The notes under the pieces are model-generated. The model was not told the DNA's origin. It did no database searches and saw nothing but the letters and a program-made list of their open reading frames with translations. A DNA stretch of 64,000 nucleotides. Origin: a virus. Positions 10,480 to 55,729 of this stretch are shown here, in pieces (within the stretch, counting starts at the first letter, position 1; the number at the start of each line of letters is the position of its first letter). The position numbers were made by a program, and so were the translations under genes. The DNA is taken from the IMG/VR virus record IMGVR_UViG_3300045988_159436, one strand, 5' to 3'.

Positions 10480-12294
10480 TTGGAACATATAACTAAACAA
10501 GAAGATGTAACAGTAACTAGAATAGTAAGCTCTTTAAATACTTTAGATGATGAAAATATGGTGGTAGTGTCCACTACAGAGCCAGAGAAGAAAAAAGATG
10601 GATTAATATGGGTTAATCCAAATCAAGAAGAAGCGGAAAAATTGGTTTATGTAGGACATACAGTTGGTGACATTTATCCCATTAGTTATACAGAGTTAGA
10701 TTCAGGTCAGTTAATATTAAATGGTCAGTTAATAAGCAGAGAAATATATGGTGTGTTATGGGATTGGTTGCAAAAACACCCTAGTTTAATAAAAACAGAA
10801 GTAGAGTGGAATGCATATTTAGCATCAACAAATAATGTATGTTGCCCATATTTTAGTATGGGAACTACTGAAACTAATTTTAGATTGCCTAAATATAGTG
10901 GAGTATTTATTAGAGCTGATTCTGATATAACTAAAATTAATCAATTTAGTGAAGATACACAAAGAAATATTCTTGGACAATTTACAACTTTTCGTACAAG
11001 TTGGGATGATGGTACTGGAGAATTACTTTTTGGAGTGAGTGGAGCTTTTGCAAAAGTAGAAACTGGTAATAATATGGACAGTATTCATCAAGATGGCTCA
11101 GACAGACAACAGCAAACTATAAATTTCGACGCTTCACGTTCAGTAGGCGCAGAGCATACTGGCGAAGAAGTAAAACCTAAATCAATAAATCAAATATGGG
11201 TTATTCAAGCTGTAGGAACTATTACTAATCAAACAAGTATTGATGTAAGTGCTATTCAAGAAGAAGTGCAACAATTAATGGATTTTGGGAATTATCAAGT
11301 AGCTTGCATTAAGGATAAATCCAATTATTTTTCAAGAGATAGTTTATTTACTTCAAACAAAACGTCTATTGTTATTCCTAAGAATATGCGGATAAATATA
11401 AATGGAGAGGCTTATATAAGCACACGTAATGTCACTCTTAATACTTCAACATTAGGTGAAAATCTAGCGGGTAAAGATGTTTATATTTATGCCTTAGCAG
11501 GTTCTGGAACAGAGCCAGATTTTGTATTATCTTTAAATAGTACAGTTCCTACAGGATATACAGCAGAAAATAGCCGTAAAATAGGTGGTTTTCATTGTTT
11601 ATGTAAAGATGTTGGGATTATAGAAGGGCATGCTTTATCTGGATATGTTGCAGGGGATATCTTACCAGCAACAAGATGGGATTTAGAACACCGCCCAAAA
11701 GGAAATCCAGAAGGATTTGCTTATGAAGAATTAACGGATTGTTGGATTGCGATTTATCTGCCAAGTTGGGACGGAACTAAATTAGTCAGTGTTTATAATG
11801 GAGTTATTGCTGATGGAAGCTCTGCTAAAAAATGGCATGGAGAAGCTTTTTATGAGCAATTTGTAAAACAAGGAATGCGTTTAGTTTGGCGGCACGAATT
11901 TCAAATGGGAGCAAAAGGTTCTAATGAACAAACAAATATTCAAGGTTCATCTGACCCTAATACTACAGGTGGGCATGTAGATACGGCTGGAAGAAGAATG
12001 ATTAGTAATATAGGATTAGAAGATTGTTGTGGTGTATTATGGCAATTTTCAATGGATTTAGGCTTTGCTGGCGGGTCTGGTTGGACAAATTCTACTTATA
12101 ACTCTAATGTAGACGATAGAAGTTATGGACGAACATATGGAACGCTTTATCGCTTGCTGTTGGGTTCTAGCTGGAATGTTGGCTCGTATTGCGGTTCTCG
12201 TTCGGCTAATTGCAATGATTCTTCGGCTTATGTGTCTGTCCACAACTCTTCTCGTAGTGCGTCTGAGCCGAGAATTGAAAATTTGAGAAACTAA
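10480..12294 (+). CDS. DGR target protein (receptor-binding-type protein with C-terminal variable region)
   Basis: The last ~50 codons are the VR copy of the downstream TR. C-terminus is rich in Gly/Ser/Asn/Tyr/Trp, as expected for a CLec/FGE-type variable domain, and ends 9 codons after the VR. Confidence 0.8.
   Translation: MEHITKQEDVTVTRIVSSLNTLDDENMVVVSTTEPEKKKDGLIWVNPNQEEAEKLVYVGHTVGDIYPISYTELDSGQLILNGQLISREIYGVLWDWLQKHPSLIKTEVEWNAYLASTNNVCCPYFSMGTTETNFRLPKYSGVFIRADSDITKINQFSEDTQRNILGQFTTFRTSWDDGTGELLFGVSGAFAKVETGNNMDSIHQDGSDRQQQTINFDASRSVGAEHTGEEVKPKSINQIWVIQAVGTITNQTSIDVSAIQEEVQQLMDFGNYQVACIKDKSNYFSRDSLFTSNKTSIVIPKNMRININGEAYISTRNVTLNTSTLGENLAGKDVYIYALAGSGTEPDFVLSLNSTVPTGYTAENSRKIGGFHCLCKDVGIIEGHALSGYVAGDILPATRWDLEHRPKGNPEGFAYEELTDCWIAIYLPSWDGTKLVSVYNGVIADGSSAKKWHGEAFYEQFVKQGMRLVWRHEFQMGAKGSNEQTNIQGSSDPNTTGGHVDTAGRRMISNIGLEDCCGVLWQFSMDLGFAGGSGWTNSTYNSNVDDRSYGRTYGTLYRLLLGSSWNVGSYCGSRSANCNDSSAYVSVHNSSRSASEPRIENLRN
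12154..12266 (+). repeat. DGR variable repeat (VR)
   Basis: 113 bp aligns to TR (12442-12554) with 16 mismatches, every one at a TR adenine. The flanks diverge immediately outside the repeat. Confidence 0.85.
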
Positions 12295-12329
12295 GAAACC
12301 GAGAAAAAGTTTGGATAGTTGGACAGAGA

Positions 12330-12349
12330 GGTCTAGAAACCGAGAGACC
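12330..12349 (+). other. hairpin downstream of VR (ggtct-N10-agacc), candidate homing-associated structure
   Basis: 5-bp stem with 10-nt loop, next to gaaaccgaga direct repeats; about 60 bp after VR. Confidence 0.25.
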
Positions 12350-12366
12350 GAGACTAAAATTTTTAG

Positions 12367-12395
12367 TTGTGAGAAAATAAAGAAGATTATATAAT
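12367..12395 (+). promoter_or_regulatory. candidate promoter for the TR-RT transcript (TTGTGA-17-TATAAT)
   Basis: ttgtga at 12367-72, 17-bp spacer, tataat at 12390-95. Confidence 0.3.
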
Positions 12396-12441
12396 AATAT
12401 TATATAAGGGCATATATGATACTTAGATTGGCAAGATTTTT

Positions 12442-12554
12442 TTGCTGTTGAGTTCTAACTGGAATAATGGCACGAATTGCAGTTCTCGTTCAGCTAATTG
12501 CAATGATTCATCAGCTAATGTGAATGTCAACAACTCTTCTCGTAGTACGTCTGA
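12442..12554 (+). repeat. DGR template repeat (TR), non-coding
   Basis: Cognate of VR. Adenines sit mainly in AAT/AAC-type positions of the VR frame. Separated from the RT start by a ~150-nt spacer. Confidence 0.85.
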
Positions 12555-12705
12555 TACGTGGGTGATTTTAAAGCAGGTGCGGCTTACCCTCGGCTGATTA
12601 TATATGCCTCACTGAAAAGTGAAATACAAAACAGGGAGAAATAGGGGCTAGTAAAGTAATTGAACGTCCTTATTTCTAAATTTTATTAAATTAAAAGGAT
12701 AATTA

Positions 12706-13722
12706 ATGAAAAGAAAAGGAAATTTATGGACTAAAATAATAGACAAAAGCAATTTATATTTGGCTTTTGAGAAAGCTAAAAGACATAAAAGTTGGCAAAG
12801 AAAGGTTAAAATTATAGAAGCAAATTTAGATTATTATATTGAAAAGTTACAAAATGATTTGATAACAGGTCAATATAAAACTGCTGAATATAAGTTAAAA
12901 ACAATTTATGAGCCAAAGAAAAGAGATATTTATATTTTGCCATTTTATCCAGATAGGATAGTTCATCACGCTATTATGAATGTTTTAGAGCCTATATGGG
13001 ATAATAGATTTATTTATAATAGTTATGCTTGTCGAAAAAATAAAGGTCAACATAAAGGCAGTATAAAATGTATGGAATACACTAGAAAGTTTAAATATTG
13101 TTTGAAATGTGATATAAGTAAATTTTATCCTTCTATTAATCACAGGCTTCTAAAGAAAGTGATACGTAAAAAAATAAAATGTAAAAAGACTTTAAATTTA
13201 TTAGATGAGATAATTGATAGTGTTGATACGCCTGTAAATGTTCCTATAGGAAATTATTTAAGTCAGTGGTTTGGAAACTTATATTTAAATGAGTTAGATG
13301 TTTTTCTAAAGCAAGAGAATTGTGTAAAAAATTATTTAAGATATTGCGATGATTTTTTATTATTTTCTGATGATAAAACATATTTAAATAAAATGGCTAA
13401 AATAATAAATGAATATGTAGTTAATATTTTAGAATTAAAACTTAGCAAATGTGTTTTGTTTCCAACAGCACAAGGAGTTGATTTTTTAGGATATAGACAT
13501 TTCCATGCTGGTTATGTTTTGGTAAGAAAATCAACAGCTAAAAGAATGAAGCGTAGGATTAAAAGATTAAAATATGAATTATTAAAGAATAAAATAAGTC
13601 AAGATAAGGCTTTATCTGTTGTAGCAAGTTTATCTGGGGGGTTAAGATGGGCTAATAGTTACAATTTAAAAATGTCTTTAGAGCTAGAATTATTAAAAAA
13701 GGAATTAGGAGGAAACTCTTAG
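12706..13722 (+). CDS. DGR-type reverse transcriptase
   Basis: RT motifs including YCDDFLLF (YxDD) and the DGR-specific motif-4 IGNYLSQWFGNLYLNELD (I/LGxxxSQ); RBS aaaggataattaATG. Confidence 0.9.
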   Translation: MKRKGNLWTKIIDKSNLYLAFEKAKRHKSWQRKVKIIEANLDYYIEKLQNDLITGQYKTAEYKLKTIYEPKKRDIYILPFYPDRIVHHAIMNVLEPIWDNRFIYNSYACRKNKGQHKGSIKCMEYTRKFKYCLKCDISKFYPSINHRLLKKVIRKKIKCKKTLNLLDEIIDSVDTPVNVPIGNYLSQWFGNLYLNELDVFLKQENCVKNYLRYCDDFLLFSDDKTYLNKMAKIINEYVVNILELKLSKCVLFPTAQGVDFLGYRHFHAGYVLVRKSTAKRMKRRIKRLKYELLKNKISQDKALSVVASLSGGLRWANSYNLKMSLELELLKKELGGNS

Positions 13723-14447: not shown

Positions 14448-14645
14448 TTGAAAGATTTTGAGAAACGTTTAAGTAAACAAAATTTTATGTTAATTAAAGT
14501 AAATGAATATTATTTTATTAGAAAAAGCAGAGCGTTTAAAAATAGTTATATGGTATTAGATTCAAAAGGGTATTTGATAGATTGTTTACAAGAAAAAATA
14601 GTTCGGCAAGTTTTTTTAGGCATAGATTTGGGGGAATGGGAATGA
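14448..14645 (+). CDS. small EWE-terminus family protein (1)
   Basis: TTG start with RBS ggaggaaata; ends ...LGEWE-TGA inside GAATGGGAATGA, which contains the next gene's ATG. ORF-track start 14394 lies upstream of the promoter -10. Confidence 0.45.
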   Translation: MKDFEKRLSKQNFMLIKVNEYYFIRKSRAFKNSYMVLDSKGYLIDCLQEKIVRQVFLGIDLGEWE

Positions 14646-17637: not shown

Positions 17638-19515
17638 ATGGCTTATGAAGCTTTCACTGGTGAAGAGTATATAGATACAGATTTAGTAGCGAAACTAAAT
17701 CAAAATTATGATGCTTGCGGAAAACTGGCAAGTAAAAACACATGGTCAGCAGATAATGACTTTACAGCAGGTTTGACAGTAAACAAAACTCCTACAGTAA
17801 ATACTGATGTATCGAATAAAAAATATGTAGATGATAGTATAGCTAACGGAGATGTAAATTCGGCTAAATATTTAAACATAACGAATTTTATCCCTTCAAA
17901 TAGCGATTTTAATGATTACAAAACTCCTGGAAAATATCAAGTACAAAGCTATACAGTAGCAAGCACAATGGCAAATATCCCCACTAGCTATAATGATGCA
18001 ACGCCAAGGAGCGGTGTATTAAGTGTATTGATTGGATTTAATGCCCTTAGAACAAGTTTAGTCCAGATTTATCGAACTTATGGGAGTAGTTATGTAGTTT
18101 CAAGAACGTATCAACGCTGTTTTTACCATGAAAATAGTCGTTGGACTGCATGGCGAGAAATTGCTTGTACTGATGAAGTAGGCTTATTAAATCAAGCAAA
18201 TACCTATACAGCATTAAATATTTTCAGGGCAAATATTGGCGTATCTAACGGAACTGCGGCAGGTAGCAGTGGTACTGTAAGTTTTGGTGTTTCTCCGACA
18301 GGTGAAACAGTACAAGCAAGAATTGGAACAGATAATTTAGGTGGATTATTTTATTACGCAAGCACAAATCAACCTCATGTATTTAGAGTTGGAACGAATA
18401 ATAATGTGTTTGTCATACGTGACGATAATACAAAAGTAACTTTTTCTAGCAATAATAAGTCCTTTGCAACGGTCACACATGATGGTGTTGCAAAATGGTT
18501 AGGTAATGCTAATACAGCAACAAAGTTACAAACCGCACGCACAATAAATGGAGTATCTTTTGATGGCACAGCAAACATTACAATAGCTGACTCTACAAAG
18601 CTCCCTATTGCTGGTGGAACAATGACAGGTAATTTAACACTTAAAGGCAATCCAACAGCAGATTTGATGGCGGCTACAAAAAAATATGTAGATGATAGTG
18701 TTGCAAGTGCAACAGCTGGTTTACTGAGTTCTAACAATATTTGGACTGGCAGTAATACATATAATAGGGATATTCATATAACAAATGGTTCGTCCGCTGG
18801 TTCGAGTGGTACGTTATATTTAGGTGTTAAACCTGCGAATGAAACAGTACAAGCAAGAATTGGAACAGATAATTTAGGTGGATTATTTTATTACGCAAGC
18901 ACAAATCAACCTCATGTATTTAGAGTTGGAACGAATAATAATGTGTTTGTCATACGTGACGATAATACAAAAGTAACTTTTTCTAGCAATAATAAGTCCT
19001 TTGCAACGGTCACACATGATGGTGTTGCAAAATGGTTAGGTAATTCTGCCACAGCAACAAAACTAGCAACTGCAAGGACTATCACAGCAAATCTTGCAAG
19101 TAGCACTGCTGGTAGCTTTGACGGCTCGGCAAATATAACAGTCGGAGTTACTGGTACTTTACCAATCGCAAATGGTGGAACAGGTTTAACTTCTGCTCCT
19201 TCTATGTTAGTAAACCTTGCTAGTACAACAGCCACATCTCCGTTACAGGCATCTCCACGTCCAGGTGTGACAGGGACTTTACCGATAGCAAACGGCGGCA
19301 CTGGACAGACAACAGCGGCAGGAGTAAGAAATGCTTTAGGGCTGGGAAACACGACAGGAGCAGTTCCTATAGCAAATGGAGGAACAGGTGCAACAACAGC
19401 CGCCGCCGCAAGGACTGCATTAGGATGTGCACCTGCATATACCTATAGTACAACTGATTTAACCGCTGGAAGCTCTAAATTAACCACAGGCACACTTTAT
19501 ATTGTGTATGAATAA
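17638..19515 (+). CDS. tail fibre protein with internal 205-bp duplication and PIANGGTG C-terminal repeats
   Basis: N-terminal domain paralogous to 10039; repeated (G)TLPIANGGTG motifs; RBS ggggtgagATGaATG. Confidence 0.6.
   Translation: MAYEAFTGEEYIDTDLVAKLNQNYDACGKLASKNTWSADNDFTAGLTVNKTPTVNTDVSNKKYVDDSIANGDVNSAKYLNITNFIPSNSDFNDYKTPGKYQVQSYTVASTMANIPTSYNDATPRSGVLSVLIGFNALRTSLVQIYRTYGSSYVVSRTYQRCFYHENSRWTAWREIACTDEVGLLNQANTYTALNIFRANIGVSNGTAAGSSGTVSFGVSPTGETVQARIGTDNLGGLFYYASTNQPHVFRVGTNNNVFVIRDDNTKVTFSSNNKSFATVTHDGVAKWLGNANTATKLQTARTINGVSFDGTANITIADSTKLPIAGGTMTGNLTLKGNPTADLMAATKKYVDDSVASATAGLLSSNNIWTGSNTYNRDIHITNGSSAGSSGTLYLGVKPANETVQARIGTDNLGGLFYYASTNQPHVFRVGTNNNVFVIRDDNTKVTFSSNNKSFATVTHDGVAKWLGNSATATKLATARTITANLASSTAGSFDGSANITVGVTGTLPIANGGTGLTSAPSMLVNLASTTATSPLQASPRPGVTGTLPIANGGTGQTTAAGVRNALGLGNTTGAVPIANGGTGATTAAAARTALGCAPAYTYSTTDLTAGSSKLTTGTLYIVYE
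18303..18507 (+). repeat. 205-bp perfect intragenic direct repeat, copy A
   Basis: Identical to 18840-19044 (offset 537 bp, in frame). Confidence 0.85.
18840..19044 (+). repeat. 205-bp perfect intragenic direct repeat, copy B
   Basis: Identical to 18303-18507. Confidence 0.85.
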
Positions 19516-20407: not shown

Positions 20408-20427
20408 AATGTTTAATAAATTAATTA

Positions 20428-20436
20428 GGGGGGGGG
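20428..20436 (+). repeat. homopolymeric G9 tract
   Basis: Nine consecutive G between an ATG-initiated 12-codon leader (20409) and the 20452 ORF; a G8 variant would fuse the two. Confidence 0.8.
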
Positions 20437-20451
20437 CAGGCAGATAAAGAA

Positions 20452-20943
20452 TTGTCTGTCAGCCGTCTTCCAAAATTACAATTACACGCACTAACTGATA
20501 ATCCTATGAATATTACAGTCACAGGGAATATTACGGTTAGTGCGACACTAGAAAATAGTGGACAAATAGGTTTAACGGTCGGTCAATATACTTATGGCGG
20601 AAATCATTGGCAGTACGGTTATAGTAGCGCAGACTATGCATCAGATCAAGTATATGGCAGTCTAAGTCCTGATACGTTCTATGGAATTAAAATAACTTCA
20701 TTAATCGCAGGATTAATAGTTGATCCTAGTAGTCAGCAGCCTTTGCTACATATACTATTGATATCTTTTGCTAATAGTTTAAGTCAGAGTTCGATAAAAG
20801 TGACAATTAATAATAAGACTTATACGCTTAGTGCCCCTAATGGAAGCGCCTATTATTATGTAAATTTACCTGATAATGATACATCATTAGTGATGTGGTT
20901 ACAATCACAGGTAGGTAAGACCATAACTGTAAACCTAGAGTAG
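20452..20943 (+). CDS. ALTDNPM-box protein paralogue (start uncertain, possibly phase-variable)
   Basis: Contains LTDNPMNITVTGNITVSATLE, homologous to the 20993 and 21434 N-termini. No RBS of its own. Confidence 0.4.
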   Translation: MSVSRLPKLQLHALTDNPMNITVTGNITVSATLENSGQIGLTVGQYTYGGNHWQYGYSSADYASDQVYGSLSPDTFYGIKITSLIAGLIVDPSSQQPLLHILLISFANSLSQSSIKVTINNKTYTLSAPNGSAYYYVNLPDNDTSLVMWLQSQVGKTITVNLE

Positions 20944-20992: not shown

Positions 20993-21412
20993 ATGGCTTT
21001 GACAGACAATCCTATGAGTTTAGTGGTTACAGGCAATGTAACAGTTGGGGCAACATTAGAAGCAAGTGTACCGACTACTGAAACAAGATTGTTGAGTACT
21101 ATGGATGTGAATACAACGGTTACTATTACAGTGCCTGCGGGTGTAAAAGTATTAAAAGTATCAGGTGCTGTAGACCATGAACACGAAGGTGAAGTAGCTT
21201 TAGATGTATATTCAGTAAATAGCAAAAAATATTGGTTATCTGTATATAATTACGGATATGCTAGTGATATTTGGTATGTAGGAGTTACACCCAATAAAAG
21301 TTATACATTAAAGTTATCAACTGATAGCGAAACTGGCACTGAATCTGGAAGTGTAACTATTAGTTATTCACAATCAATTAACAATCAAACGCCTAAAGTA
21401 ACCGATTACTAA
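20993..21412 (+). CDS. ALTDNPM-box protein paralogue
   Basis: RBS cggaggaaaaagATG; MALTDNPMSLVVTGNVTVGATLEAS; ends KVTDY. Confidence 0.45.
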   Translation: MALTDNPMSLVVTGNVTVGATLEASVPTTETRLLSTMDVNTTVTITVPAGVKVLKVSGAVDHEHEGEVALDVYSVNSKKYWLSVYNYGYASDIWYVGVTPNKSYTLKLSTDSETGTESGSVTISYSQSINNQTPKVTDY

Positions 21413-21433: not shown

Positions 21434-21847
21434 ATGGCTTTAACTGATAATCCAATGTCAATTATCGTGACAGGCAATGTCACCATAGGAGCTAGCTTAG
21501 AGGCTAGTATTCCTAGTGGGGAAGTTACTTTAGCACATGGCAGTACCTTTACAGTTCCCGCAGGAATAACAGTATTAAGAGCTTCATTTAATCAATCTGG
21601 ATATTTAAGTTTGATTACGTATGTAGGTGTAACACCCAATAAATCCTATAAATTGTATTCTAATTGGACTGAATATAATTATGGAGAAGGTGAAGAATAC
21701 TTGTTGTATAATGCTAACAATAATAAATCTTGGATTGATTATACTATAGGCAATTTAGATGTTGATACTGGTTACACTGAGCTGAATTTTAAACTCGAAT
21801 GGTCGCCTACTATCAATTCACACGCAGTAGAAGTTACAGACTATTAA
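21434..21847 (+). CDS. ALTDNPM-box protein with a 27-aa constant N-terminus followed by a switchable C-terminal cassette
   Basis: MALTDNPMSIIVTGNVTIGASLEASIP, then the C-terminal part; ends VEVTDY. The 36-bp inverted repeat lies within codons 16-27. Confidence 0.45.
   Translation: MALTDNPMSIIVTGNVTIGASLEASIPSGEVTLAHGSTFTVPAGITVLRASFNQSGYLSLITYVGVTPNKSYKLYSNWTEYNYGEGEEYLLYNANNNKSWIDYTIGNLDVDTGYTELNFKLEWSPTINSHAVEVTDY
21480..21515 (+). repeat. 36-bp perfect inverted repeat, left copy (candidate inversion crossover site)
   Basis: tcaccataggagctagcttagaggctagtattccta; the exact reverse complement is at 22149-22184. Confidence 0.85.
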
Positions 21848-22148
21848 TAATCAGTAATATTAGGAGATTTCGCATTAATAGTTGGAGACCAAGATATCAA
21901 AATTCTAGCTCTATCATCCCTAGCACTTATCCAATATTTACTAGAGCTAGAATAATAGCAATAATAAAAATCATTGCTACCAACCACGACTGTTAACGTA
22001 TATGTTTTTCCACCAGTTACTCCTACATAATTAGGAGATTTTTCCCCCACATCCTGAACTTCAACAACTTTTATATTAGTGGGTATAGTCACACTCCATT
22101 TATTTGTAGAGCCCGGCGATGAATATGTAGGAGATTGTACACTTCCTG
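21844..22148 (-). other. promoterless alternative C-terminal cassette on the minus strand (ends ...NITDY)
   Basis: Minus-strand frame encodes TGSVQSPTYSSPG...SWSPTINAKSPNITDY, paralogous to the + strand C-termini, and begins exactly at the inverted repeat. No start codon or RBS of its own inside the segment. Confidence 0.45.
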
Positions 22149-22184
22149 TAGGAATACTAGCCTCTAAGCTAGCTCCTATGGTGA
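22149..22184 (-). repeat. 36-bp perfect inverted repeat, right copy
   Basis: Reverse complement of 21480-21515. Confidence 0.85.
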
Positions 22185-22298
22185 GGGGATTTAAGAAAGG
22201 AATTGTAGATGGTAAAAATACTAATAATGGTACTATTTTTCTTGTTCCCCACATTAGCGGATGCTCATGTTGTAATGGGTGGTGATAGGGGAGAAACA

Positions 22299-22796
22299 AT
22301 GAAGAATATAAAAATAGTAGAAAATTATTTTAAAAATAATTTTAATTTAACTTTACATAGAGATGTTGCTGTTATTAATGTTGGTTCAGTAAAAGAATAT
22401 GCGGATTTGTTAAAATACTTTAAAATAAATAATGCAGAAGAAATAGCTCAAAAAAGTGGAGCGGTAACATCTCGAAATTCTGTAATAGTTATAAATACTG
22501 CTGGAACAGATAAGAGTGATAGATTGTTTCTTTTAGCGCATGAAATGACACATCAATATCAGTTCCAGCAGAAGGGAAAAGCGGCTACAGAAGATATGGC
22601 AATGCTTGAAGGATTTGCTGATTTAATAGCCAATGACATAAGTGGAGCTTACATATCTATTGAAAATTATGGAATAAAGCGGGAAGATTTAAAGAGTTAT
22701 TCAGATTTCAACGAAGCACAAAAACAGTATGGAAATAAGGTATATGAACAGGCAAGATATTATGCAAGAAAAGAGAAGTTTTTAGATTATTACTAA
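22299..22796 (+). CDS. HExxH zinc-metallopeptidase-like protein (alternative start 22209 would add a signal-peptide-like N-terminus)
   Basis: LLAHEMTHQYQ plus a downstream EGFAD (gluzincin-like third ligand). RBS ggggagaaacaATG at 22299. The upstream in-frame extension MVKILIMVLFFLFPTLADA resembles a signal peptide. Confidence 0.4.
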   Translation: MKNIKIVENYFKNNFNLTLHRDVAVINVGSVKEYADLLKYFKINNAEEIAQKSGAVTSRNSVIVINTAGTDKSDRLFLLAHEMTHQYQFQQKGKAATEDMAMLEGFADLIANDISGAYISIENYGIKREDLKSYSDFNEAQKQYGNKVYEQARYYARKEKFLDYY

Positions 22797-33132: not shown

Positions 33133-33533
33133 TGGCTAAATGGTCTCAAAAAGCATTAGATTCTTGTATGAAGTATTGGCAGAAAATTTTAGGACTTAGT
33201 CATTGGGATATAGTTATTACATATGCAAATAATAGGGATATTGAATATTTATTGGGCTACCCAGCATTAGCAAGTATTTCTTCTAGCCCTTCTATGGAGA
33301 GGGCAATAATTCGGATAAACAGTAATCCTGAGCTTGACGAAGATGCTATTATAAATGGCAGTGATGATGTTGAGTGGAGTATACTTCACGAATTATTGCA
33401 TCTTTATTACCTAGATTTATATATAAATAAAGAAGATAAAGCACAAACAGAATTGATAGAAAAAATTATCAATAAGACTTGTAAAGCATTATTGACTACA
33501 GGAAGGTTTAGAAATGGGCGCAATAGCAGATAG
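33132..33533 (+). CDS. hypothetical protein containing an HELLH motif
   Basis: ATGG overlap with the previous gene; ILHELLHLYY. Confidence 0.35.
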   Translation: MAKWSQKALDSCMKYWQKILGLSHWDIVITYANNRDIEYLLGYPALASISSSPSMERAIIRINSNPELDEDAIINGSDDVEWSILHELLHLYYLDLYINKEDKAQTELIEKIINKTCKALLTTGRFRNGRNSR

Positions 33534-33804
33534 ACAAACTTTAATTAATAAAATAGCAGAGCAAAATAATATTACTTCAACAGAGGCAAATAATATTATT
33601 AAGATGTTTTGTAAAGGCGTAGAAGGAGTTTTAGAAGAATATGCTGGATTAGTTTTGCCTAGATATTTTTCTTTAGTATCTAGACAACAAGATATAAAAA
33701 CTTCTTATAACATTCATACTAAGACTTTTCAAGATAGAAAACCTTTTAACAGGTTTGTTTTCAAGCCAAGTAAAAAATGGAAGAAGTTAATTAATAAGGA
33801 GTGA
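33514..33804 (+). CDS. hypothetical protein
   Basis: ORF overlapping the previous gene end. Confidence 0.35.
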   Translation: MGAIADRQTLINKIAEQNNITSTEANNIIKMFCKGVEGVLEEYAGLVLPRYFSLVSRQQDIKTSYNIHTKTFQDRKPFNRFVFKPSKKWKKLINKE

Positions 33805-33808
33805 TTAT

Positions 33809-36800
33809 TTGTTTCATCAAAGATTCTTTAAATTAACTATTGTCAATAAAGAGAATGTTGATAGATTTTTTGAGGAATATGAACGAGCGAAACAAATTTT
33901 CTTTGACTTTGAAACTTCTGGATTAGATGTAAGATATAAGGGGAAAGATTATGCAGTAGGATTAACAGTAGCCTTTGAAGATAGTGTCAGTAAGGAAGTA
34001 TACTATATTCCTTTCAGACACTATTTTGAAGGTAGCTATATTGGTTGTGGGAGACTCGATTACCGTAAAAACACTGCGGTTTTTGATGATGCTAAAAATT
34101 TTCCTGATTTTTTACCAGAAAAGTTTTCAGGAGAATATTATAATATGGATATTGTTGATTTTATGGAACGATTGAAGCCTTTAATGGAAAATGGCGGGAA
34201 AGAGTATATAGCCCATCATATTTCATTTGACTTACATTTATTTGCAAATGAAGGTGTAGATATAGTAAAAGTGTTTGAAACAAATACTTTTACTGATACA
34301 CAAATAGCTGTACATACTTTAGATGAAGAACAAGAGAAGAATTTAGAAGCAGTAACTGAAACAATTTTCTCTGTAAAAAAATCTCATTTTAAAGATACTA
34401 TTATGACAGTTACTAAAGAGGAAAAGAAACTTTTGGGATTAGCTTCTAATAGTAATGCTAGTTTTCAACACGTTCAGATTCCAATAGGAGCACAATATTC
34501 AGCAGAAGATGTATATTTTATGAAAGAAATGTATGAGCCAATTCTTAATGCGTTAAGAGAAGATGGTGGTTACGAATATTTTAGAGAAGTACGAATGCCA
34601 TATATGAAAGTTTTGTGGAAAATGGAACGTAATGGAATCAAAGTTGACATAGAAAAACTTGAAGGTATGATAAAATTAGCAGAAGAAAAATTGGAAGAAT
34701 TAACATACAAAATATATGAAGTAGTAGGAGCTAAATTTAATATTAACAGTGGTCAACAGTTATTTGAGATATTATATGGTTTTAAAAAGAAATTAAAGGA
34801 TAAGAAAACAGGGGAATATAAAGAGTCTTTTAATGAAGATTTAGTAGCATTAAATTTTGGTTTTAAGCCTATCGCATGGACAGAGGGCGGGAAATCAAGA
34901 GATATGGTATTAAGAACACCAAAAACAGATAAAGATGCGCTAAAGAAATTATTAAGACAAACTCCTAAAAGAGAAGATGGGCATAAATTAATTAAACTTC
35001 TACAAGATTATTTTAAATTAACAAAATTGTATACAGCATTTATGCTGGGTATAAAAGAAAAAATATATTGTGATGGAAAAGTACATCCAAGCTTCAACCA
35101 AAATGGTTGTCTTGTAGCAAACACTTTAATTCCTACAGATAGGGGATTGTTCCGCATTCAGGATTTAGTAACAGATGCTTTAGTTGATGGTGAATTTGTT
35201 TCTAAAACCTATACGCTATTAAATCGAAATTTAGAACCTGAAAAGACTTCCCATATAGTTAAATATGAGAATAGGAATACTATAAAAATTCGTACTGCTT
35301 TAGGGGTTACTATCGAAGGAACTGAAAATCACCCAATAATATGTAATAAATATTCTTCAAAAGATTTATACCTTAATAGGAATAGTTGTCGTTTTAAAAA
35401 TTTATATAAGAAAAAGGATGCTCAAATTTTCAAGCGTTTAGATGAGATAAATACTGAAACTTATGTAGCAGTCCCTTATGGTTATAATTTTTTTGCTAAA
35501 GATTATCAGAAACTTGAATATGAATATGTTGCAATGCGTAGTGGATTTAAGCAAGTTAAATTACCAGAAATTTTAGATGAAGATGTGGCAGAGTTTATGG
35601 GGATGTATTATGCAGATGGGTGTTTATCAGACACAAATGGTACTTTTACTATTTGCTTTACTAATGGAGATTCCTGTGTAATAAATCGTATACAAGAATT
35701 GTCTTTAAGACTTTTTGGAATAAAAGCACATGTTCGTGACTGTCATCCTCATAGAAATTCTTTGGATATTAGAATTAGTGCTAAAAGACTTGCTAGTATT
35801 GAGAAAGCTTTTCAGCTTAAAAGAGGATGCACAAACAAAGTTATTCCTGATATTATTTTACAGTCCCCAAGAAGTGTTGTAATAGCTTTCATAAAAGGAA
35901 TGACATTAGATAGTTATTTTGTAGAAGAATCTAATAAAAAACAGCTAAGATTTACTGTTTCAAATGAGCAAAGTCTTTTTCAACTTCAAACATTGCTATT
36001 GAATTTAGGTATTATTGGTGGGGCAAGACATCTCAATACTTATACTGGAAATGTTTATATGCTAACATTAACTAATGGAGAATATTTAAAGTTTAGAGAT
36101 ATCGTAGGATTTGTTCAAAAGAAAAAGTATAAAGATTTTGAGTATCAAAGAATTTCTGGTCAATATTTAGTAGATGAAGGTAATTCATTAATTTGGGTAA
36201 AGGTTAAAGAAATAGATAAAGGAAGGGCAGATGTTTATGACTTTACTCTACCCGAAACACATAGTTTTATTTCAAATGGGTTTATTAGTCATAATACATC
36301 ATCATTTAGGCTAAGTTGTTCTGACCCGAACTAAACAGATGGTTCGCTAGGCAAGAAATTCCTAGAAAAATTAACTGCTCTAACTCGGTGAAACTCCACC
36401 AATAAAAGGACAACACCGAACTAAGTTAGTTAGCGATAACTAAAAAGTGTAACGACTAGAGAAAGTAGGCTATATTAGTCGAAATCTCCACGAATGGGCA
36501 GAGCCTAAACCGAAAGGCATGGCTAAGATATAGTCTGAACTCCGTACAATGGTAAAGACGGAGAAGCGGGGATAAAGAGCCCCGTGATAACATAATTGTT
36601 CAACAGCTTCCTAAGCCTTTAGAAGAGCCTAAAGATGGTGAAGATAGAAGTTACTATGATTTTTGGATACAATTTGAAATAAGAAGTTTAATGATAGCTG
36701 ACAATGAAGACGAAGTAATTGTTGCGGCAGATTATCATGCTCTGGAAAAGTTTTTAACAGCGCATTTTTCAAAAGACCCATTGTTGATTAAAATGCTAAA

Positions 36801-37968
36801 AGAGAAACTTGACCCACATGGAACAGTAGCAACAATTATTTTTCCAGAATTAGCAGATGCAGACCCAAATTCAATTAAGAAGTTAGCACCACATAAAAGA
36901 AATGTGGCTAAGACTGTAGGTTTCGCTCAAATCTAGGGTGAAGTAAAATCCCTCTCAAAACGGTGAAAGCCTAACAGGTTAATACCGTGCCGAACTCTGT
37001 GAAAACAGCGGTGTAGAGACTTATAATGTATCGGCTATGTTAAAACATAAATCAATCGAATACATTTAATGGGGGATAGGAGCAAGCTCCTAAAGGTATA
37101 GTCCGACACTCTTGGCAACAGGAGAAAACAGAATGGTAGATTATGGCGGTTCAAAAATAGCGGTAGCAAGAAATCTAGAGATAGATGAAAAGACCGCACA
37201 AGAATATATAGATAGATATTTTGAAGGTTTTGCAGGGTTAAGAAAATACGATAGAGATTTAATTCAATTTGCTAGAAAGAATGGTTATATAGAAACATTA
37301 TTTTCTGGGCATAAACGTCACTTGTGGGGGATAAATTCCCAAGATGGCAGAACACGTTCATATTATGAGCGGCTAGCAGTTAATTCAAAATCACAAGGGG
37401 CGGCGGCAGATTGCACAACATTAGCACAGATAGATGTGGATAATGATGTAGTATTAAAATCTATTGGTGCAAGACAAATACTTAATGTACACGATAAACT
37501 TTAGTCAAATAACTTGTCGTGTTTAAACTCTTCGATATGCTGGAACGCAAAAATACAGTATTACCAAAGAGTGACAATATACTGTATATCACGAAAGTGT
37601 GTAGCCAATCAGCAGGGAGGAAATGAGAGCATTTCACCCTCACAGACTAACAAAAGCATAGAATAGTAGGAACTGCACATTACTACTATTTGAGAAGTGA
37701 GTAGAGTACGGCTTTGTTGAGATACAAAGTGGGTTGACATCCTTAAATGGAAGCGGGGAGGCATAGTGCAGATGTATGATATAGTCGAGTGTGTTTTTAA
37801 GCATACGTTATGGAGATAGTCATGGTTTGTCCTAAAAAGTTTGCAGAATTATGCAAGCAGAGATTAACTTTTCATATGGAAAATTGTTTACCAAGCAGGG
37901 GTATAAATTTAACAATTCCATTAGAAGCCGTAGGAGATATAGGTAGAACTTATAGTGAAGCAAAATAA
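33809..37968 (+). CDS. family-A DNA polymerase (3'-5' exonuclease + polymerase) in 4 exons, with an in-frame intein in exon 1
   Basis: Exo I motif FFDFETSGLD; after the intein, SSFRLSCSDPN (RLSSSDPNLQNIP motif); exon 2 VAADYHALE (motif A) and KRNVAKTVGF (motif B); exon 3 ...SQGAAADC...NVHD (motif C); exon 4 ...EIVMVCPKK...HMENC...IPLEAVGDIGRTYSEAK matching Pol I C-termini. Exons approximately 33809-36332, 36668-36923, 37131-37495, 37813-37968. Confidence 0.8.
35108..36295 (+). mobile_element. intein (396 aa) with LAGLIDADG homing-endonuclease domain
   Basis: Begins with Cys (CLVANTLIP) directly after HPSFNQNG, ends ...FISHN followed by Thr. Internal FMGMYYADG and FIKGMTLDSY LAGLIDADG-type motifs. 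Confidence 0.75.
36333..36667 (+). mobile_element. group I intron 1 in the polymerase gene (no ORF; boundaries +/- 2 nt)
   Basis: Interrupts the DPN|LQ motif. Contains the S-like core aagatatagtctgaac and paired elements (cgctaggcaag...cctag); exon U before the 5' splice site. Confidence 0.6.
36924..37130 (+). mobile_element. group I intron 2 in the polymerase gene (small, no ORF; boundaries approximate)
   Basis: Interrupts motif B (TVGF | MVDYGGS); contains aaaggtatagtccgac core-like element. Confidence 0.5.
37496..37812 (+). mobile_element. group I intron 3 in the polymerase gene (no ORF)
   Basis: Exon ends VHD (...cacgaT), intron ends ...tatgG, downstream exon starts EIVM. Contains the gatatagtcgag S-like element. 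Confidence 0.65.
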
Positions 37969-38015: not shown

Positions 38016-38390
38016 ATGACAATTAAAGTAGGTGGACAGATGGCAGATGATTTAGTTTACCGAGGAGATGCTTCTTCTTCTAAAACATCTTCTGGTGAAT
38101 ATGAAGAAGTTTTAAAACTTTTAGAAGCTCAGGTAGGAATGCTTGAAGACATAAATAATCGTTTACAAAAGTGTGTTGTTGGGGAGACCATTTCAGTTGA
38201 AAGTGTAGCCCCAGAAGGGTTAGTACCAAATGTTCTTGGTATACGTTTAAGTAGATTAGAGGATAAGTTAGAAGTTATTATTAGAGATTATTCTGATTGT
38301 GTTGATGTAATTGAAGAGAAATTAGGCAAGATGACATTACAGGGGGGATACTTTGCCAGATTTAAAGCAGTTAGTAAAGACTATAAATAA
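38016..38390 (+). CDS. hypothetical protein
   Basis: RBS aaggaggtaaagaatATG. ORF-track start 37968 lies upstream of the predicted transcription start. Confidence 0.4.
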   Translation: MTIKVGGQMADDLVYRGDASSSKTSSGEYEEVLKLLEAQVGMLEDINNRLQKCVVGETISVESVAPEGLVPNVLGIRLSRLEDKLEVIIRDYSDCVDVIEEKLGKMTLQGGYFARFKAVSKDYK

Positions 38391-39444
38391 AGCGCATGGT
38401 AAGAACGCTATACGTTTAGGGGCAACTATTAAAGAGCAGATGTCCTATAAGATTTCAACAGGTAGTGTGGCTTTAGATTATGTAATTGGTGGTGGAATAC
38501 CTTCTGGAAGATTAATAACTATTGCAGGAGCTTATTCTACTGGTAAATCATTATTAGCTTATAAGATGATTGCTAATGTTCAAAAAATGAAAAAGAAACT
38601 TGTTACAGTTGATGGCGAAGATATAGAAATTGTAGCAGAAGATGGTGATATTCCTTTAACTTGTGCTTTGATACAAACGGAACAAGGTAGTCTTACAAAA
38701 GAATGGGCAATAGAAAACGGCATAGATTTAGAGTCACTTTTATTTTGCCAACCTGATGGAATGGAAGAAGCTTTAGATATAGCTATAGCCTTGCAGAGAG
38801 CAGGAGTAGAATTGATTGTTATTGATTCTTATGCCGCTTTACTACCTACTAAAGTATTAACTTCTGACTTTGATGAAAGCTATCAAATGGGAATCAAGCC
38901 TAAAATGTTAGGTGAGTATCATGGTAAATTTCAGTTGTTTAATAATGCATTAGAGCGAGAAGGAAAACTTCCTTCTACGGTTGTTGCAATTAATCAGTTG
39001 AGAGAGAAAATTGGCGTGATGTATGGAAGTCCAGAGTATACAACAGGTGGTAGAAGCACTGGATTTACAAATACTTTAGAGATTAGATTACGTATGGGTG
39101 ATACTATTGCAGTAGGTAGTGGAGAAACAAAAAGAATTGTAGGTAAGACAATCAAATTTAGAATCGAGAAAAATAAAGCTGGCGTTCCTTATGGAACAGG
39201 TGAGTATGATATTTATACAGACACTTGTGATTATATTCAAAGAGGGGATATTGATAACGAAAAAGCATTAATTATGATTGCAGTATTGTTAGGAATAGTT
39301 GAGCGCAGAGGTGGCTGGTATTACTATAATGGTGAGCAGTTATCACAGGGGCAAGATAATTTAATTAAATTATTGCGTTCTAACAGAGCTTTATTTGAAG
39401 AGATAAGGGAAAAGGTGTTAACATCAGATGAGCATATACAATAG
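38353..39444 (+). CDS. recA: RecA-family recombinase
   Basis: GGIPSGRLITIAGAYSTGKS (Walker A) and AINQLREKIGVMYGSPEYTTGG match RecA core motifs. TTG start with RBS aggggggata. Confidence 0.8.
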   Translation: MPDLKQLVKTINKAHGKNAIRLGATIKEQMSYKISTGSVALDYVIGGGIPSGRLITIAGAYSTGKSLLAYKMIANVQKMKKKLVTVDGEDIEIVAEDGDIPLTCALIQTEQGSLTKEWAIENGIDLESLLFCQPDGMEEALDIAIALQRAGVELIVIDSYAALLPTKVLTSDFDESYQMGIKPKMLGEYHGKFQLFNNALEREGKLPSTVVAINQLREKIGVMYGSPEYTTGGRSTGFTNTLEIRLRMGDTIAVGSGETKRIVGKTIKFRIEKNKAGVPYGTGEYDIYTDTCDYIQRGDIDNEKALIMIAVLLGIVERRGGWYYYNGEQLSQGQDNLIKLLRSNRALFEEIREKVLTSDEHIQ

Positions 39445-39628
39445 AGGCTATAACTCTTTTTTATATGATATTCTGGTAAGGCGAGGGTATTATACAGCTT
39501 CTTGTCATAATTGTTGGTTTTATGACAGAGGCTGTATTAATACAGATGTTACAGAGTATGATTTAATTAAGGGTGAAGAAACATATTGTATCTTTTGGAA
39601 GCCACCACCAGTACAAGGGAATAGGTGA
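39428..39628 (+). CDS. small Cys-rich protein
   Basis: CHNC...C...C pattern. Confidence 0.3.
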   Translation: MSIYNRGYNSFLYDILVRRGYYTASCHNCWFYDRGCINTDVTEYDLIKGEETYCIFWKPPPVQGNR

Positions 39629-40161
39629 TAAAAAGCATGGTGAGAAAAGGAACAACAAAGTACAAAAGTAACAAACAAGAAAAAGATGTAGCAAAAATAT
39701 TAGGTGGAAAAACAGTAATGGCTAGTGGCTCTTTATGGCAAGCTAAGGGTGATGTAAGAACATCAAGATACTTAGTTGAGTGTAAGACTACTGATAAAGA
39801 TTTCTATAAGCTGGAACAAAAGATTTTAGCTAAAATTGCAAAGGAAGCTATAAAGGACGGACTAAGAAGCCCTCTATTAGTTTTTGATTGCAAGAATGAG
39901 AGATTTGTAGTCTTTAGAGTAAAGGACTGTTCGTTAAAAGCCTCTTTAATCTTTAAATTATTTAAAGTAAAGGTTATTGATACTTTAGTAAAAGGTAGAA
40001 GTATAGCTTTAGACTATAAAGAAGATTTAAAGAGTTTAAATAAAAATGAGAATGCTATAGGATTTAGTGTTCATAACTATAGATTAGTTCCTGAAACTTG
40101 GTTTTTAGTTTCAGAAGAAGTATTCTTAAAAAATGAAAGAGTATTATACGAGGTTATGTAA
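39625..40161 (+). CDS. putative PD-(D/E)xK nuclease
   Basis: GDV...YLVECKTT D..ExK-like motif. Confidence 0.3.
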   Translation: MIKSMVRKGTTKYKSNKQEKDVAKILGGKTVMASGSLWQAKGDVRTSRYLVECKTTDKDFYKLEQKILAKIAKEAIKDGLRSPLLVFDCKNERFVVFRVKDCSLKASLIFKLFKVKVIDTLVKGRSIALDYKEDLKSLNKNENAIGFSVHNYRLVPETWFLVSEEVFLKNERVLYEVM

Positions 40162-43494: not shown

Positions 43495-43878
43495 ATGAAC
43501 CAAGAACTCACATTAGCAGTTAGCAGTAGTTTTGAAGCCGCTCATCATTTAGTAAATCCAACAGCATTTAATGAAAAATGCCTTAAACTACATGGACATT
43601 CTTATAAGTATACTATCTTTTTAAAAGGAGAAGTACAAGATGGTGGTATGGTAGAAGATTTTGGAGCTATAAAGAGATATATTATAAATGAAATAACAAA
43701 GCTCTATGACCATTCAGATTTAAACAGATTTTTTTATAATCCTACCGCAGAAATGTTAGTTTTAGATATGGCATGGAGAGTAGAAGCCTTAATAGAGGAT
43801 AATAGTTTAAAAGTTAAACTGACCAAAATAGAATTAGCCGAAACGGATAATAATAGGGTAATATGGGAGTCACAGTAA
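43495..43878 (+). CDS. queD: 6-carboxy-5,6,7,8-tetrahydropterin synthase QueD
   Basis: CLKLHGHSY (CxxxHGH) plus the N-terminal EAAHHL motif. Confidence 0.7.
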   Translation: MNQELTLAVSSSFEAAHHLVNPTAFNEKCLKLHGHSYKYTIFLKGEVQDGGMVEDFGAIKRYIINEITKLYDHSDLNRFFYNPTAEMLVLDMAWRVEALIEDNSLKVKLTKIELAETDNNRVIWESQ

Positions 43879-44535
43879 ATGTATATTACAGAGATTTTTA
43901 GTAGTATTCAAGGTGAGGGGAAGTATACAGGCTATCCTACTACCTTTGTTAGATTATTTGGTTGCAATTTATTTGAGATGTCTCCTAGCTATGCTTGTAA
44001 GTATTGTGATGAGAAACATTCAATGACAGGCAAACGAATAAAGATGCATTTAGGATTGGTAATGGATAAGATAGGGGCATTAGGAAATAAATATGTTTGT
44101 ATTACAGGTGGAGAACCTTTAATGCAGGAAGAAACTATGCCTTTAGTTTATGAATTATTGTATAATGATTATATTGTTACAGTAGAAACAAATGGGACAA
44201 TTCCTATAGAGCATTGTGAATATGTAAGAAGTTATTCATATTGTATGGATGTTAAATTACCTAGTAGCAGAACAGTATTAGCACCAGATTTAAATTGTTA
44301 TAAGAATTTAGGAGAGCTAAAAGTAAATGATGAAGTTAAGTTTGTTATTTCTAATATCCATGATTATGAAGAAGCAAAACGGATTTTAAAGAAATATAAA
44401 ACTAAAGCAAGCCTTATTTTTTCTCCTGTGAATTGTGATTTAGAATTAGCAAGAGAAATAATGGGTTGGTTAATGAAAGATAAACTAAAAGCTAAATTAG
44501 GATTACAAATACATAAATTATTAGAAATTAAATAG
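43879..44535 (+). CDS. queE: 7-carboxy-7-deazaguanine synthase QueE (radical SAM)
   Basis: EIFSSIQGEGKYTGYPTTFVRLFGCN...C..CD N-terminal signature. Confidence 0.7.
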   Translation: MYITEIFSSIQGEGKYTGYPTTFVRLFGCNLFEMSPSYACKYCDEKHSMTGKRIKMHLGLVMDKIGALGNKYVCITGGEPLMQEETMPLVYELLYNDYIVTVETNGTIPIEHCEYVRSYSYCMDVKLPSSRTVLAPDLNCYKNLGELKVNDEVKFVISNIHDYEEAKRILKKYKTKASLIFSPVNCDLELAREIMGWLMKDKLKAKLGLQIHKLLEIK

Positions 44536-50218: not shown

Positions 50219-50827
50219 ATGGATAATTGCGAATTTTATTTATTATATAGCGGTGGGTATGATAGCACTGTGTTGCTTTATGATTTTATTGATAAATTAC
50301 CTAATAAATTGACGGTAATACATATTGTTACTCAGTATAATCAAGAAGAAACAAAAGCGGCAAGAAAAATAATTGAATTAGTAAAAGATAAAATTCTTAA
50401 CTATATTGAATTAGAAATGCCTGTTTACAAAACAGAAATAGAATACATTCCTTATAGAAATGCTCAATTTATATTAAGAGCACTTTCAACCTTGACAATT
50501 AAAGCAAGATGTGCTATAATATTATTAGGGTTGATAAAGGTAGAGGAACCTTTCCCTGATTGCACACAATATTGGTTAAAAACAATGGAGAAATTAGTTC
50601 AAGTAGAAAATCCTCATATTGGATTAGAGGCACCTTATATCAATAATACTAAAGATGAAATTTATACCGTAGGATGCAAGTTTAAGGTTCCTTTAAGAAA
50701 TACTTTTAGTTGTAACTTTCCTGTAGATGGTGCAGAATGCGGGGAATGTGGAAACTGTAAATGGAAAGCAAAACATAAATATCCTAATTATTTTAGAGTT
50801 ATAGAAGGAGGTAAAAACAATGTTTAA
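50219..50827 (+). CDS. queC: 7-cyano-7-deazaguanine synthase QueC
   Basis: PP-loop YSGGYDST; C-terminal zinc cysteines CNFPVDGAECGECGNCKWK. Confidence 0.7.
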   Translation: MDNCEFYLLYSGGYDSTVLLYDFIDKLPNKLTVIHIVTQYNQEETKAARKIIELVKDKILNYIELEMPVYKTEIEYIPYRNAQFILRALSTLTIKARCAIILLGLIKVEEPFPDCTQYWLKTMEKLVQVENPHIGLEAPYINNTKDEIYTVGCKFKVPLRNTFSCNFPVDGAECGECGNCKWKAKHKYPNYFRVIEGGKNNV

Positions 50828-55336: not shown

Positions 55337-55729
55337 ATGAATTTTCGCATTAACGATGTAGTAACATTAAAACAAGGATTGACAGGTGAAAAAGAAAAGT
55401 ATAGCGGCAAGACTTTAATGATTCGAGCTATTTCCGAAGGGCATTACATTATGAAAGTACCTAATAAAACTGCACCAAAAGATAATCGTGAACTTATGGA
55501 TGTAAGTTTTAATGATGCTGATATTCAATTAAATCCTTTAGAAGTAAAGGTAGAAACTGAATCTGATGGAATTATTGATATTATGGCTAAAAATTCAAAA
55601 GATGAATGGATTGCAATTTTACGGTTACAGGATGGAGAATTATTGCGTAAAAAAGATTTAGCAAAACAAGGTTTTTCTGGCTTGAAGTTAGACTTTAAAG
55701 GAAGACTTCGGTTAGTAACCAGTTATTAA
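55337..55729 (+). CDS. hypothetical protein
   Basis: RBS aaggagataatagtATG. Confidence 0.4.
   Translation: MNFRINDVVTLKQGLTGEKEKYSGKTLMIRAISEGHYIMKVPNKTAPKDNRELMDVSFNDADIQLNPLEVKVETESDGIIDIMAKNSKDEWIAILRLQDGELLRKKDLAKQGFSGLKLDFKGRLRLVTSY

Follow-up and report, generated by a model that had tools for sequence, protein, structure and literature searches.

Architecture of the invertible locus

The stretch of DNA analysed here (hereafter the window) comprises 64,000 nt of the virus genome recorded in IMG/VR as IMGVR_UViG_3300045988_159436, has a GC content of ~31% and carries nearly all of its genes on the + strand. A 137-codon open reading frame (ORF) that starts at position 21434 of the window contains one arm of a 36-nt perfect inverted repeat, and a preliminary description of the locus had proposed that inversion between the two arms would exchange the C-terminal part of the encoded protein. 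The repeat, TCACCATAGGAGCTAGCTTAGAGGCTAGTATTCCTA, is exact in its two arms (left and right inverted repeat, IRL and IRR; Table 1), which are separated by 633 nt. These are the only copies of the repeat, or box, in the 64 kb when up to three mismatches are allowed, and neither such a pair nor such copies are expected by chance (0 in 100 shuffles). As the preliminary description had read them, IRL forms codons 16-27 of the ORF at 21434 (...VTGNVTIGASLEASIP) and IRR stands at the head of a frame on the minus strand (ORF 21844-22299), the product of which is a paralogous domain ending in ...NITDY; both readings were confirmed from the ORFs. The two repeat copies share a codon phase, and inversion therefore yields an in-frame fusion. 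The two cassettes between the arms, C1 (expressed in the window) and C2 (silent in the window), lie tail to tail with stop codons that overlap by 2 nt (GACTATTAATAATC), and the segment therefore consists of two coding cassettes and nothing else.

Table 1. Coordinates of the switch, of the genes around it and of other features of the window
Feature	Position	Strand	Remarks
Constant 5' part of switched gene	21434-21479	+	codons 1-15, MALTDNPMSIIVTGN + first base of V16
IRL, crossover box	21480-21515	+	encodes (V)TIGASLEASIP
Cassette C1, expressed in window	21516-21847	+	SGEVTL...VEVTDY, then stop
Cassette C2, silent in window	21844-22148	-	TGSVQSP...NITDY, then stop
IRR	22149-22184	-	perfect repeat (exact reverse complement of IRL), breakpoint edge
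Right flank type RF1	22185-22298	.	non-coding, ~115-nt spacer
Tail fibre gene, head of module with switch	17638-19515	+	625 aa; PHROG tail-fibre families, best 1.5e-21
Paralogue 1	20409-20943	+	longer N-terminus; frameshifted in window by 9-G tract 20428-20436
Paralogue 2	20993-21412	+	same N-terminal box and fold family, direct orientation, box DNA diverged
Phage RecA, candidate strand-exchange enzyme	38353-39444	+	PF00154 at 2.8e-47 and RecA_C
Holliday-junction resolvase, candidate for resolving the intermediate	39625-40161	+	phrog_2002 at 1e-19
HU/IHF-like DNA-bending protein, possible accessory factor	33514-33804	+	PF00216 at 8.5e-9
DGR target gene	10480-12294		Mtd second domain (7e-20)
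DGR VR	12154-12266		3' end of target gene
DGR TR	12442-12554		every TR/VR mismatch at a template adenine
DGR reverse transcriptase	12706-13722		RVT_1, 3e-17, YCDD motif
DGR, diversity-generating retroelement (see below).

The box is internally quasi-palindromic (TAGGAGCTAGC-TTAGAG-GCTAGTATTCCTA), with an internal stem of 12 bp (z = -2.5, equalled by 2 of 200 shuffles). The outermost one to three bases of IRR vary with the other right flanks found in related genomes (CCACC or CCTCC), so that the core common to all is 33-35 nt. Among these genomes only 2 of 33 inner sites of the box segregate per slot, compared with 21-38% of sites in the adjacent cassette, a contrast that is biased by the retrieval of most loci through exact matches to the box.

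The preliminary description had also credited the gene at 21434 with a dedicated promoter and ribosome-binding site (RBS), which our scans did not bear out. The gene has no promoter that exceeds chance level (18 promoter-like sites vs 17.8 expected), the terminator scan was likewise at chance level, and no Shine-Dalgarno sequence is present ahead of the ATG. The gene sits within a long + strand operon of late genes.

To the right of the segment, the spacer RF1 is crossed by the minus-strand reading frame, which has no RBS-preceded start codon there, and is followed by a gene with ATG at 22299 and a weak metallopeptidase-like match. Three other right-flank types in related genomes (RF2-RF4) open with a consensus TTGACA-17-TATAAT promoter facing right. 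In L004, L005, L007, L010, L014 and others a perfect TTGACA-17 nt-TATAAT stands right after the repeat, facing downstream, and these alternative flanks then carry an Amidase_2 endolysin module that replaces the spacer and metallopeptidase-like gene of the window. The differing right flanks place the switch at a mosaic boundary between tail and lysis modules.

Both orientations occur among natural relatives

A search for exact matches to the box retrieved 14 contigs from IMG/VR and 29 loci from metagenomes, almost all of them with a human-gut label, and three further lineages were obtained via protein look-ups. Both slots could be assigned in 33 related metagenomic genomes, with orientations read from consensus contigs and not from reads. 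C1 is expressed and C2 silent in nine of these genomes, and the reverse arrangement is found in seven. A third cassette, C3, is silent behind an expressed C1 in 16 genomes, where the segment is 684 nt long, and is itself expressed with C1 silent in one (L136). C1 thus occupies the silent slot in eight genomes of the census. The constant 5' part of the gene precedes the repeat in every genome with a readable expressed slot, whichever cassette follows.

The comparison with related phages suggested in the preliminary description therefore did reveal the inverted orientation. In seven loci (L002, L003, L005, L014, L112, L119 and L133) C2 is fused in frame to the constant N-terminus and repeat while the expressed cassette of the window, C1, occupies the silent slot; these natural variants are the fusion of the 27-codon N-terminus to the alternative C-terminus that had been predicted from the window. 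Piecewise BLAST of L002, L003, L005 and L014, with base-level junctions, showed that the 633-nt segment matches in the orientation opposite to that of the flanks on either side, at 97-99% identity. The breakpoints coincide exactly with the edges of the repeat, and the left junction reads constant N-terminus, repeat and C2 in frame. Three ORFs from independent assemblies (P0094, P0104 and P0114) read through from the right flank into C1, that is, they have C1 in the silent slot.

RF1, RF2 and RF3 are each found with both orientations. In a neighbour-joining tree built from the 633-nt segments of 15 genomes, orientation has to change at least five times, the maximum possible being six. L005, which expresses C2, and L126, which has the opposite orientation and expresses C1, are identical at all but one of the 633 nt. 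The population holds at least three cassette alleles, C1, C2 and C3, all of which retain intact ORFs despite often being silent; each genome has two copies of the box and one segment, and the diversity of cassettes lies between genomes. Three contigs (L118, L121 and L131) end exactly at the inner edge of a repeat, which hints at mixed orientations within samples.

These patterns bear on the possibility that there is no ongoing switching at all, the two states being either old, fixed strain variants, such as relics of the past duplication-inversion that the preliminary description had named as its refuting case, or artefacts of ambiguous assembly across a repeat of 36 bp. In favour of such an explanation, the analysis drew on consensus contigs only, an assembler could in principle thread a repeat shorter than its k-mer either way, and some contigs do end at the repeat (the three just mentioned). 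However, orientation is essentially uncoupled from descent, with five of six possible changes and an opposite pair that is nearly identical, so that the relic explanation fails; both states occur on several flank haplotypes; and the fusions are perfectly in frame, with all three cassettes kept open. As to assembly, the inverted state is also present in L112 and L136, contigs with NODE-style names that suggest SPAdes. Typical final k-mers of SPAdes exceed 36, in which case the junctions in these two contigs would be supported by reads, and we judge an assembly artefact to be unlikely. Taken together, an absence of ongoing switching is very improbable, and we conclude with high confidence that the locus is an active and recurrently used reversible inversion switch and not a relic.

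The switched protein and its paralogues

The protein encoded in the window consists of a 27-residue N-terminal tail and a β-sandwich domain of ~110 residues. In the AlphaFold2 model (mean pLDDT 90.1) residues 28-137 form a compact β-sandwich, whereas residues 1-27 are predicted at low confidence and lack secondary structure. According to this model, the repeat terminates exactly where the flexible N-terminal tail meets the globular domain. The protein family comprises 66 clusters at 50% identity, with members mostly of 120-190 aa and the recurrent motifs VPTGS, FTVPxGV, YVGVTPGK and SWSPEINxHTPDVTDY. The cassette proteins have no sequence match in Pfam, PHROGs or the PDB, a Foldseek search of the model against the PDB returned nothing at E <= 0.001, and structural matches in BFVD are weak and fall on uncharacterised gut-phage proteins and 'glycine-rich domain' proteins. 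None of the distant relatives of the family (L138-L160) has an inverted-repeat cassette.

The switched gene is placed after the tail fibre gene that heads the module and before a Peptidase_M15 gene at w24175, whose product looks from its sequence like an endolysin. This position, after the fibre gene and before lysis genes, supports a role in the tail, and gene position and fold together make it most likely that the swapped domain belongs to the tail tip, where it would bind the surface of the host. Flipping of the segment would then alter adsorption specificity.

Two paralogues precede the switched gene in direct orientation. As stated in the preliminary description, the genes at 20452 and 20993 have the N-terminal protein box in common with it and not the nucleotide repeat: over a 70-nt repeat family that spans the box, DNA identity is only 64-70%. 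The region has also been rearranged in other ways. In P0034, P0052 and eight similar database proteins the long N-terminus of paralogue 1 (MFNKLIRGGQADKELSVSRLP...LHALTDNPM) is fused directly to the box and C1, so that genomes differ in how many tandem paralogues they carry. The whole invertible segment is deleted in L115:5046-5190 and L116:2171-2315 (equivalent to window 21434-22184), where the N-terminus is followed by TCACCA, the reverse-complement repeat and the right flank, leaving a stub of 30 codons; the junction of this deletion lies within 5 nt (TAGGA) present in both repeat arms. In L135 the right repeat is joined, in inverted orientation, to the interior of paralogue 2, with the junction near GAATA. 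Because of these deletions and this join, the third paralogue seems to be dispensable and the region prone to rearrangement.

No recognisable recombinase in the phage genome

The window belongs to a human-gut phage of ~95 kb that has a long tape-measure gene and is probably a siphovirus infecting Firmicutes. Its genome size, judged from relatives, is ~95-97 kb, and Bacillus phage BCD7 (94 kb) is its closest cultured relative on terminase identity (49%). Among GenBank phages the region has no match by megablast or blastn and the cassette protein none by tblastn.

We scanned all window ORFs of at least 70 aa, after dropping nested ORFs, against Pfam, and some ORFs also against PHROGs. For the remaining third of the genome we used precomputed Pfam annotation of relatives' loci upstream and downstream of the window, together with an arm with NrdD, terminase and portal genes (L034) and a bridging 10 kb (L089), the overlap of which confirms closure of the circle. 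Neither the window ORFs nor the relatives' loci that cover the rest of the ~95-kb circle yielded a serine, tyrosine, DDE or HUH recombinase; the claim that the window lacks a recombinase thus held in the Pfam and PHROGs scans, and the search of the remaining genome for an invertase, which had been proposed along with it, likewise gave none. No Resolvase/Recombinase or Phage_integrase gene adjoins the segment, whose neighbours are the paralogues and the weakly metallopeptidase-like ORF.

The 26-bp gix, hix and cix sites of serine invertases have the core AAACC-NN-GGTTT (consensus of hixL and gixL). This core is absent from the 36-bp box, and no gix/hix-type core lies near the segment; the sole match in the window with one mismatch is at 55663, compared with a chance expectation of 2.3. 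Inspection by eye for a Xer/dif-like site gave a 7-nt match (TTCCTAG) to an arm of the B. subtilis dif site, which we judge to be due to chance.

The repeat is absent from 185,579 species-representative bacterial and archaeal genomes (GTDB), and there is therefore no known prophage state and no clue to the host. No integrase was found in the phage either. Because it has neither integrase nor prophage copy and carries a full replication and nucleotide-metabolism set, the phage looks virulent. Its genome does encode proteins that handle DNA: besides RecA, a Holliday-junction resolvase and an HU/IHF-like protein (Table 1), there are PD-(D/E)XK nucleases, a match to a DNA-repair exonuclease family and a ligase.

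How the segment may be inverted

We favour general homologous recombination as the mechanism, since our scans revealed no dedicated enzyme and the phage itself encodes a set of recombination functions. This is a tentative preference held at a little short of even confidence; the same confidence attaches to the reading as a whole, that is, a switch that works by homologous recombination on the 36-bp identity. A crossover between the inverted boxes would flip the segment and join the fixed N-terminus in frame to the other, promoterless cassette. The phage RecA and Holliday-junction resolvase, or those of the host, would carry out the reaction. Selection and gene conversion would hold the 36-bp identity perfect, leaving the boxes of the directly repeated paralogues free to diverge in DNA, and the synonymous divergence of these direct copies would guard against deletion. 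Products of recombination are seen in the lineage, namely fusions and deletions among the paralogue boxes, including those that join the paralogue 1 N-terminus to C1, deletions at microhomologies and a tandem duplication in the fibre gene (below).

The two repeat copies differ by a single nucleotide polymorphism (SNP) in eight genomes, all of which express C1, while every inverted genome has identical inner repeats. The association (0 of ~7 vs 8 of ~23) is not significant (hypergeometric p ~0.08), and the failure of genomes with mismatched copies to appear in the inverted state is predicted both by homologous recombination and by an enzyme acting in trans. Among database proteins, the E-to-K change caused by one of these SNPs (G21A) occurs in expressed-type contexts in 16 of 16 K variants, a figure to be set beside the mere four silent-slot proteins available.

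Elsewhere in the tail module, the tail fibre gene contains a perfect direct repeat of 205 nt (18303-18507 and 18840-19044, a period of 537 nt). Copy number varies and most relatives have a single unit, so that the second unit in the window either arose very recently by tandem duplication or reflects copy-number polymorphism. Such variation permits homologous recombination and does not discriminate between mechanisms.

Several observations weigh against the favoured reading. First, 36 bp is short for RecA-type recombination at such a frequency of flipping. Second, the 12 codons of the box have undergone no synonymous change among lineages with cassettes that have diverged to 87-89% protein identity, and inversion through homology alone would require only agreement between the two copies, not constancy of their sequence; retrieval of most loci by exact match to the box biases this observation. 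Third, a quasi-palindrome with two half-sites around an asymmetric 6-bp centre is the typical layout of a tyrosine-recombinase core. Fourth, of the 17 genomes with C3 a single one expresses it, although the repeat is the same, and therefore selection, or some factor besides repeat identity, sets the balance. Finally, the evidence for switching comes from comparing consensus contigs between genomes and not from reads within one population.

The second and third of these points would be accounted for if a site-specific recombinase supplied in trans by the host (a global tyrosine or serine invertase, or an Xer-like enzyme) used the box, with the phage carrying the sites only. The half-sites of the box, TAGGAGCTAGC and TAGGAATACTAGC around TTAGAG, its sharp and conserved edges and its low diversity fit such an enzyme, as does the failure to find a recombinase in the phage genome. 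Only two SNPs recur in the box, one at its centre (G21A) and one in an arm (C25T), each present in a single copy and only in C1-expressed genomes, as would be the case if mismatched sites were locked. There is also a precedent in an inverted locus of ~500 bp in Bifidobacterium prophages that has no flanking recombinase and for which a trans-acting invertase was proposed (PMC6109161). On the other hand, for a phage that is apparently virulent, having no integrase and no prophage among the 185,579 genomes, dependence on a host invertase would be fragile. The symmetry of the box is moreover of modest significance and follows in part from its Ala-Ser codons (GCTAGC / GCTAGT). We therefore regard a host-supplied recombinase as a serious but rather unlikely explanation.

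The same features of the box would apply equally to a recombinase of the phage's own that belongs to an unrecognised family and is encoded among the ORFs with no assigned function. Many ORFs have no Pfam or PHROG match (e.g. w56366, w41256, w15899, w8126, w27498 and w41791). Mu gin and P1 cin, however, lie adjacent to the segments that they invert. The invertase of the Rin system is likewise adjacent (PMC6109161). In the present phages no unassigned ORF lies consistently beside the switch, as there are four unrelated right-flank types and the left flank consists of paralogues of the switched gene. An unrecognised phage recombinase appears improbable, and the broader proposition that the box is the target of a recombination enzyme outside the recognised families, whether from a phage ORF or from the host, hardly less so. 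Under homologous recombination, the mechanism that we prefer, the locus may be a true programmed switch that the phage has evolved and that needs nothing beyond phage RecA and resolvase acting on a minimal 36-bp homology.

Comparison with known inversion systems

According to the preliminary description, the arrangement was exactly that of the Mu G or P1 C segment. The switching logic is indeed the same: inverted repeats within a gene, a constant N-terminus, two opposed promoterless C-terminal cassettes and both orientations in nature. The likeness is not complete, however. Unlike Mu and P1, the present phage has no serine invertase that we could find, either adjacent to the segment or encoded elsewhere in the genome, and no gix/cix-like core. 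Its segment of 633 bp, compared with ~3 kb for the Mu G segment, contains two cassettes only and no co-inverted chaperone gene, and its constant part is 27 codons long. The host is probably Gram-positive and the phage apparently virulent, which also sets this system apart from Mu and P1.

Invertible loci in prophages of Bifidobacterium are close in setting, being found in gut phages of a Gram-positive host and swapping C-terminal cassettes of receptor-binding proteins by inversion. The Rin shufflon of these prophages is served by a tyrosine invertase encoded next to it and has rix sites of 11 bp, and a second locus of ~500 bp comprises a small gene and the 3' end of its neighbour, with an 8-bp site and no flanking recombinase (PMC6109161). 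This second locus shares with the present one the lack of a flanking recombinase. The bifidophage loci lie in integrated prophages, with host enzymes at hand, whereas the present switch has a perfect 36-bp repeat and belongs to a phage with no integrase or known prophage state. It also differs from shufflons of the Rci/Rin type, served by tyrosine recombinases, in having one segment, two copies of the box and no tyrosine recombinase that we could find.

Recombination without a dedicated enzyme has been described for Anabaena cyanophages, in which an invertible region of ~30 kb undergoes recombinase-independent flip-flop between repeats of 400-700 bp (bioRxiv 10.64898/2026.02.14.705889). As in our census, both isomers occur, orientation shows no phylogenetic correlation, no dedicated recombinase is known and general recombination is invoked. 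The cyanophage repeats, however, flip blocks of genes without recoding, whereas here a 36-bp intragenic repeat swaps protein domains in frame.

In coding effect the locus resembles the recoding invertons of bacteria, in which inverted repeats within coding sequence likewise change the protein; the present example resides on an apparently virulent phage. Surveys of intragenic invertons in gut bacteria and of gene-altering programmed inversions have reportedly identified candidates from inverted repeats and confirmed them with reads, and the loci concerned are said to be mostly chromosomal and served by cell-encoded invertases. The concept of the switch is classical; what is unusual is that no invertase was found, that the breakpoint falls precisely on a domain boundary and that the switch coexists with a DGR and a poly-G tract.

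Other diversification devices and features of the genome

The first of these two devices, a complete DGR, spans window 10480-13722 (Table 1). The module is missing from some relatives (L015-L018).

The second lies in paralogue 1 (window 20409-20452), where a tract of nine G (20428-20436) is preceded by a strong RBS and by the start codon, ATG, at position 20409. With nine G the window is out of frame (MFNKLIRGGAGR*), and the homologues P0034 and P0052 read through with eight. In 27 genomes the tract has 7, 8, 9, 10 and 11 G in 2, 11, 9, 2 and 3 cases, respectively, 14 genomes being in frame and 13 out of frame. By analogy with Campylobacter phages, the tract is probably a slipped-strand device for phase variation, homopolymer sequencing error being a possible source of some of this variation.

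A further repeated element concerns the ends of genes. The sequence ...(E)WE-stop ends 13 of 104 window ORFs, compared with 0.1 expected from amino-acid composition (ORF ends at 14645, 14857, 15054, 25322, 25568, 49313, 53260, 53574, 53843, 54205, 54408, 57605 and 63108). The corresponding DNA motif is GARTGGGARTRA (twice GGTTGGGAATAG-like), and its internal ATG sometimes starts the next gene in an overlapping frame (MGM... or MGV...). It looks like a module repeated at the junctions between small genes, which may serve translational coupling or act as a recombination linker.

The family-A DNA polymerase gene (33809-37504) contains an intervening intein that carries a LAGLIDADG endonuclease, and it is split over several ORFs; LAGLIDADG genes are also found near the capsid and NrdD genes of the relatives L016, L017 and L034. 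A set of 7-deazaguanine pathway genes (43495-44535, 50219-50827 and 51036-52877) encodes a PTPS/QueD-like protein, a radical-SAM QueE-like protein, QueC and a 613-aa DpdA/TGT-like protein (phrog_887, 5e-55), and the sequences of this set suggest that the phage DNA is modified. Further downstream are two amidoligase genes and several Ntn-amidotransferase-like paralogues.

Significance

Swapping of tail-fibre tips by DNA inversion is a textbook route by which phages change host range, and to our knowledge the well-characterised cases all keep their own invertase beside the segment. The locus described here performs a precise in-frame exchange of domains with no recognisable invertase, and does so in an apparently virulent and very abundant phage of the human gut, whose DUF2460 tail protein is indexed in 821 blocks of a public assembly collection. 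If an identity of 36 bp does suffice, recoding invertons may be far commoner in phages than searches based on invertases suggest. If instead a trans-acting or new enzyme is at work, the switch would represent a new dependency between phage and host, and if that enzyme belongs to an unrecognised family that targets the box, a very common gut phage would possess a new system of programmed DNA inversion. With a DGR, a poly-G tract and an inversion switch combined in one tail module, these phages would be a useful model for how gut phages track the variable surfaces of their hosts.

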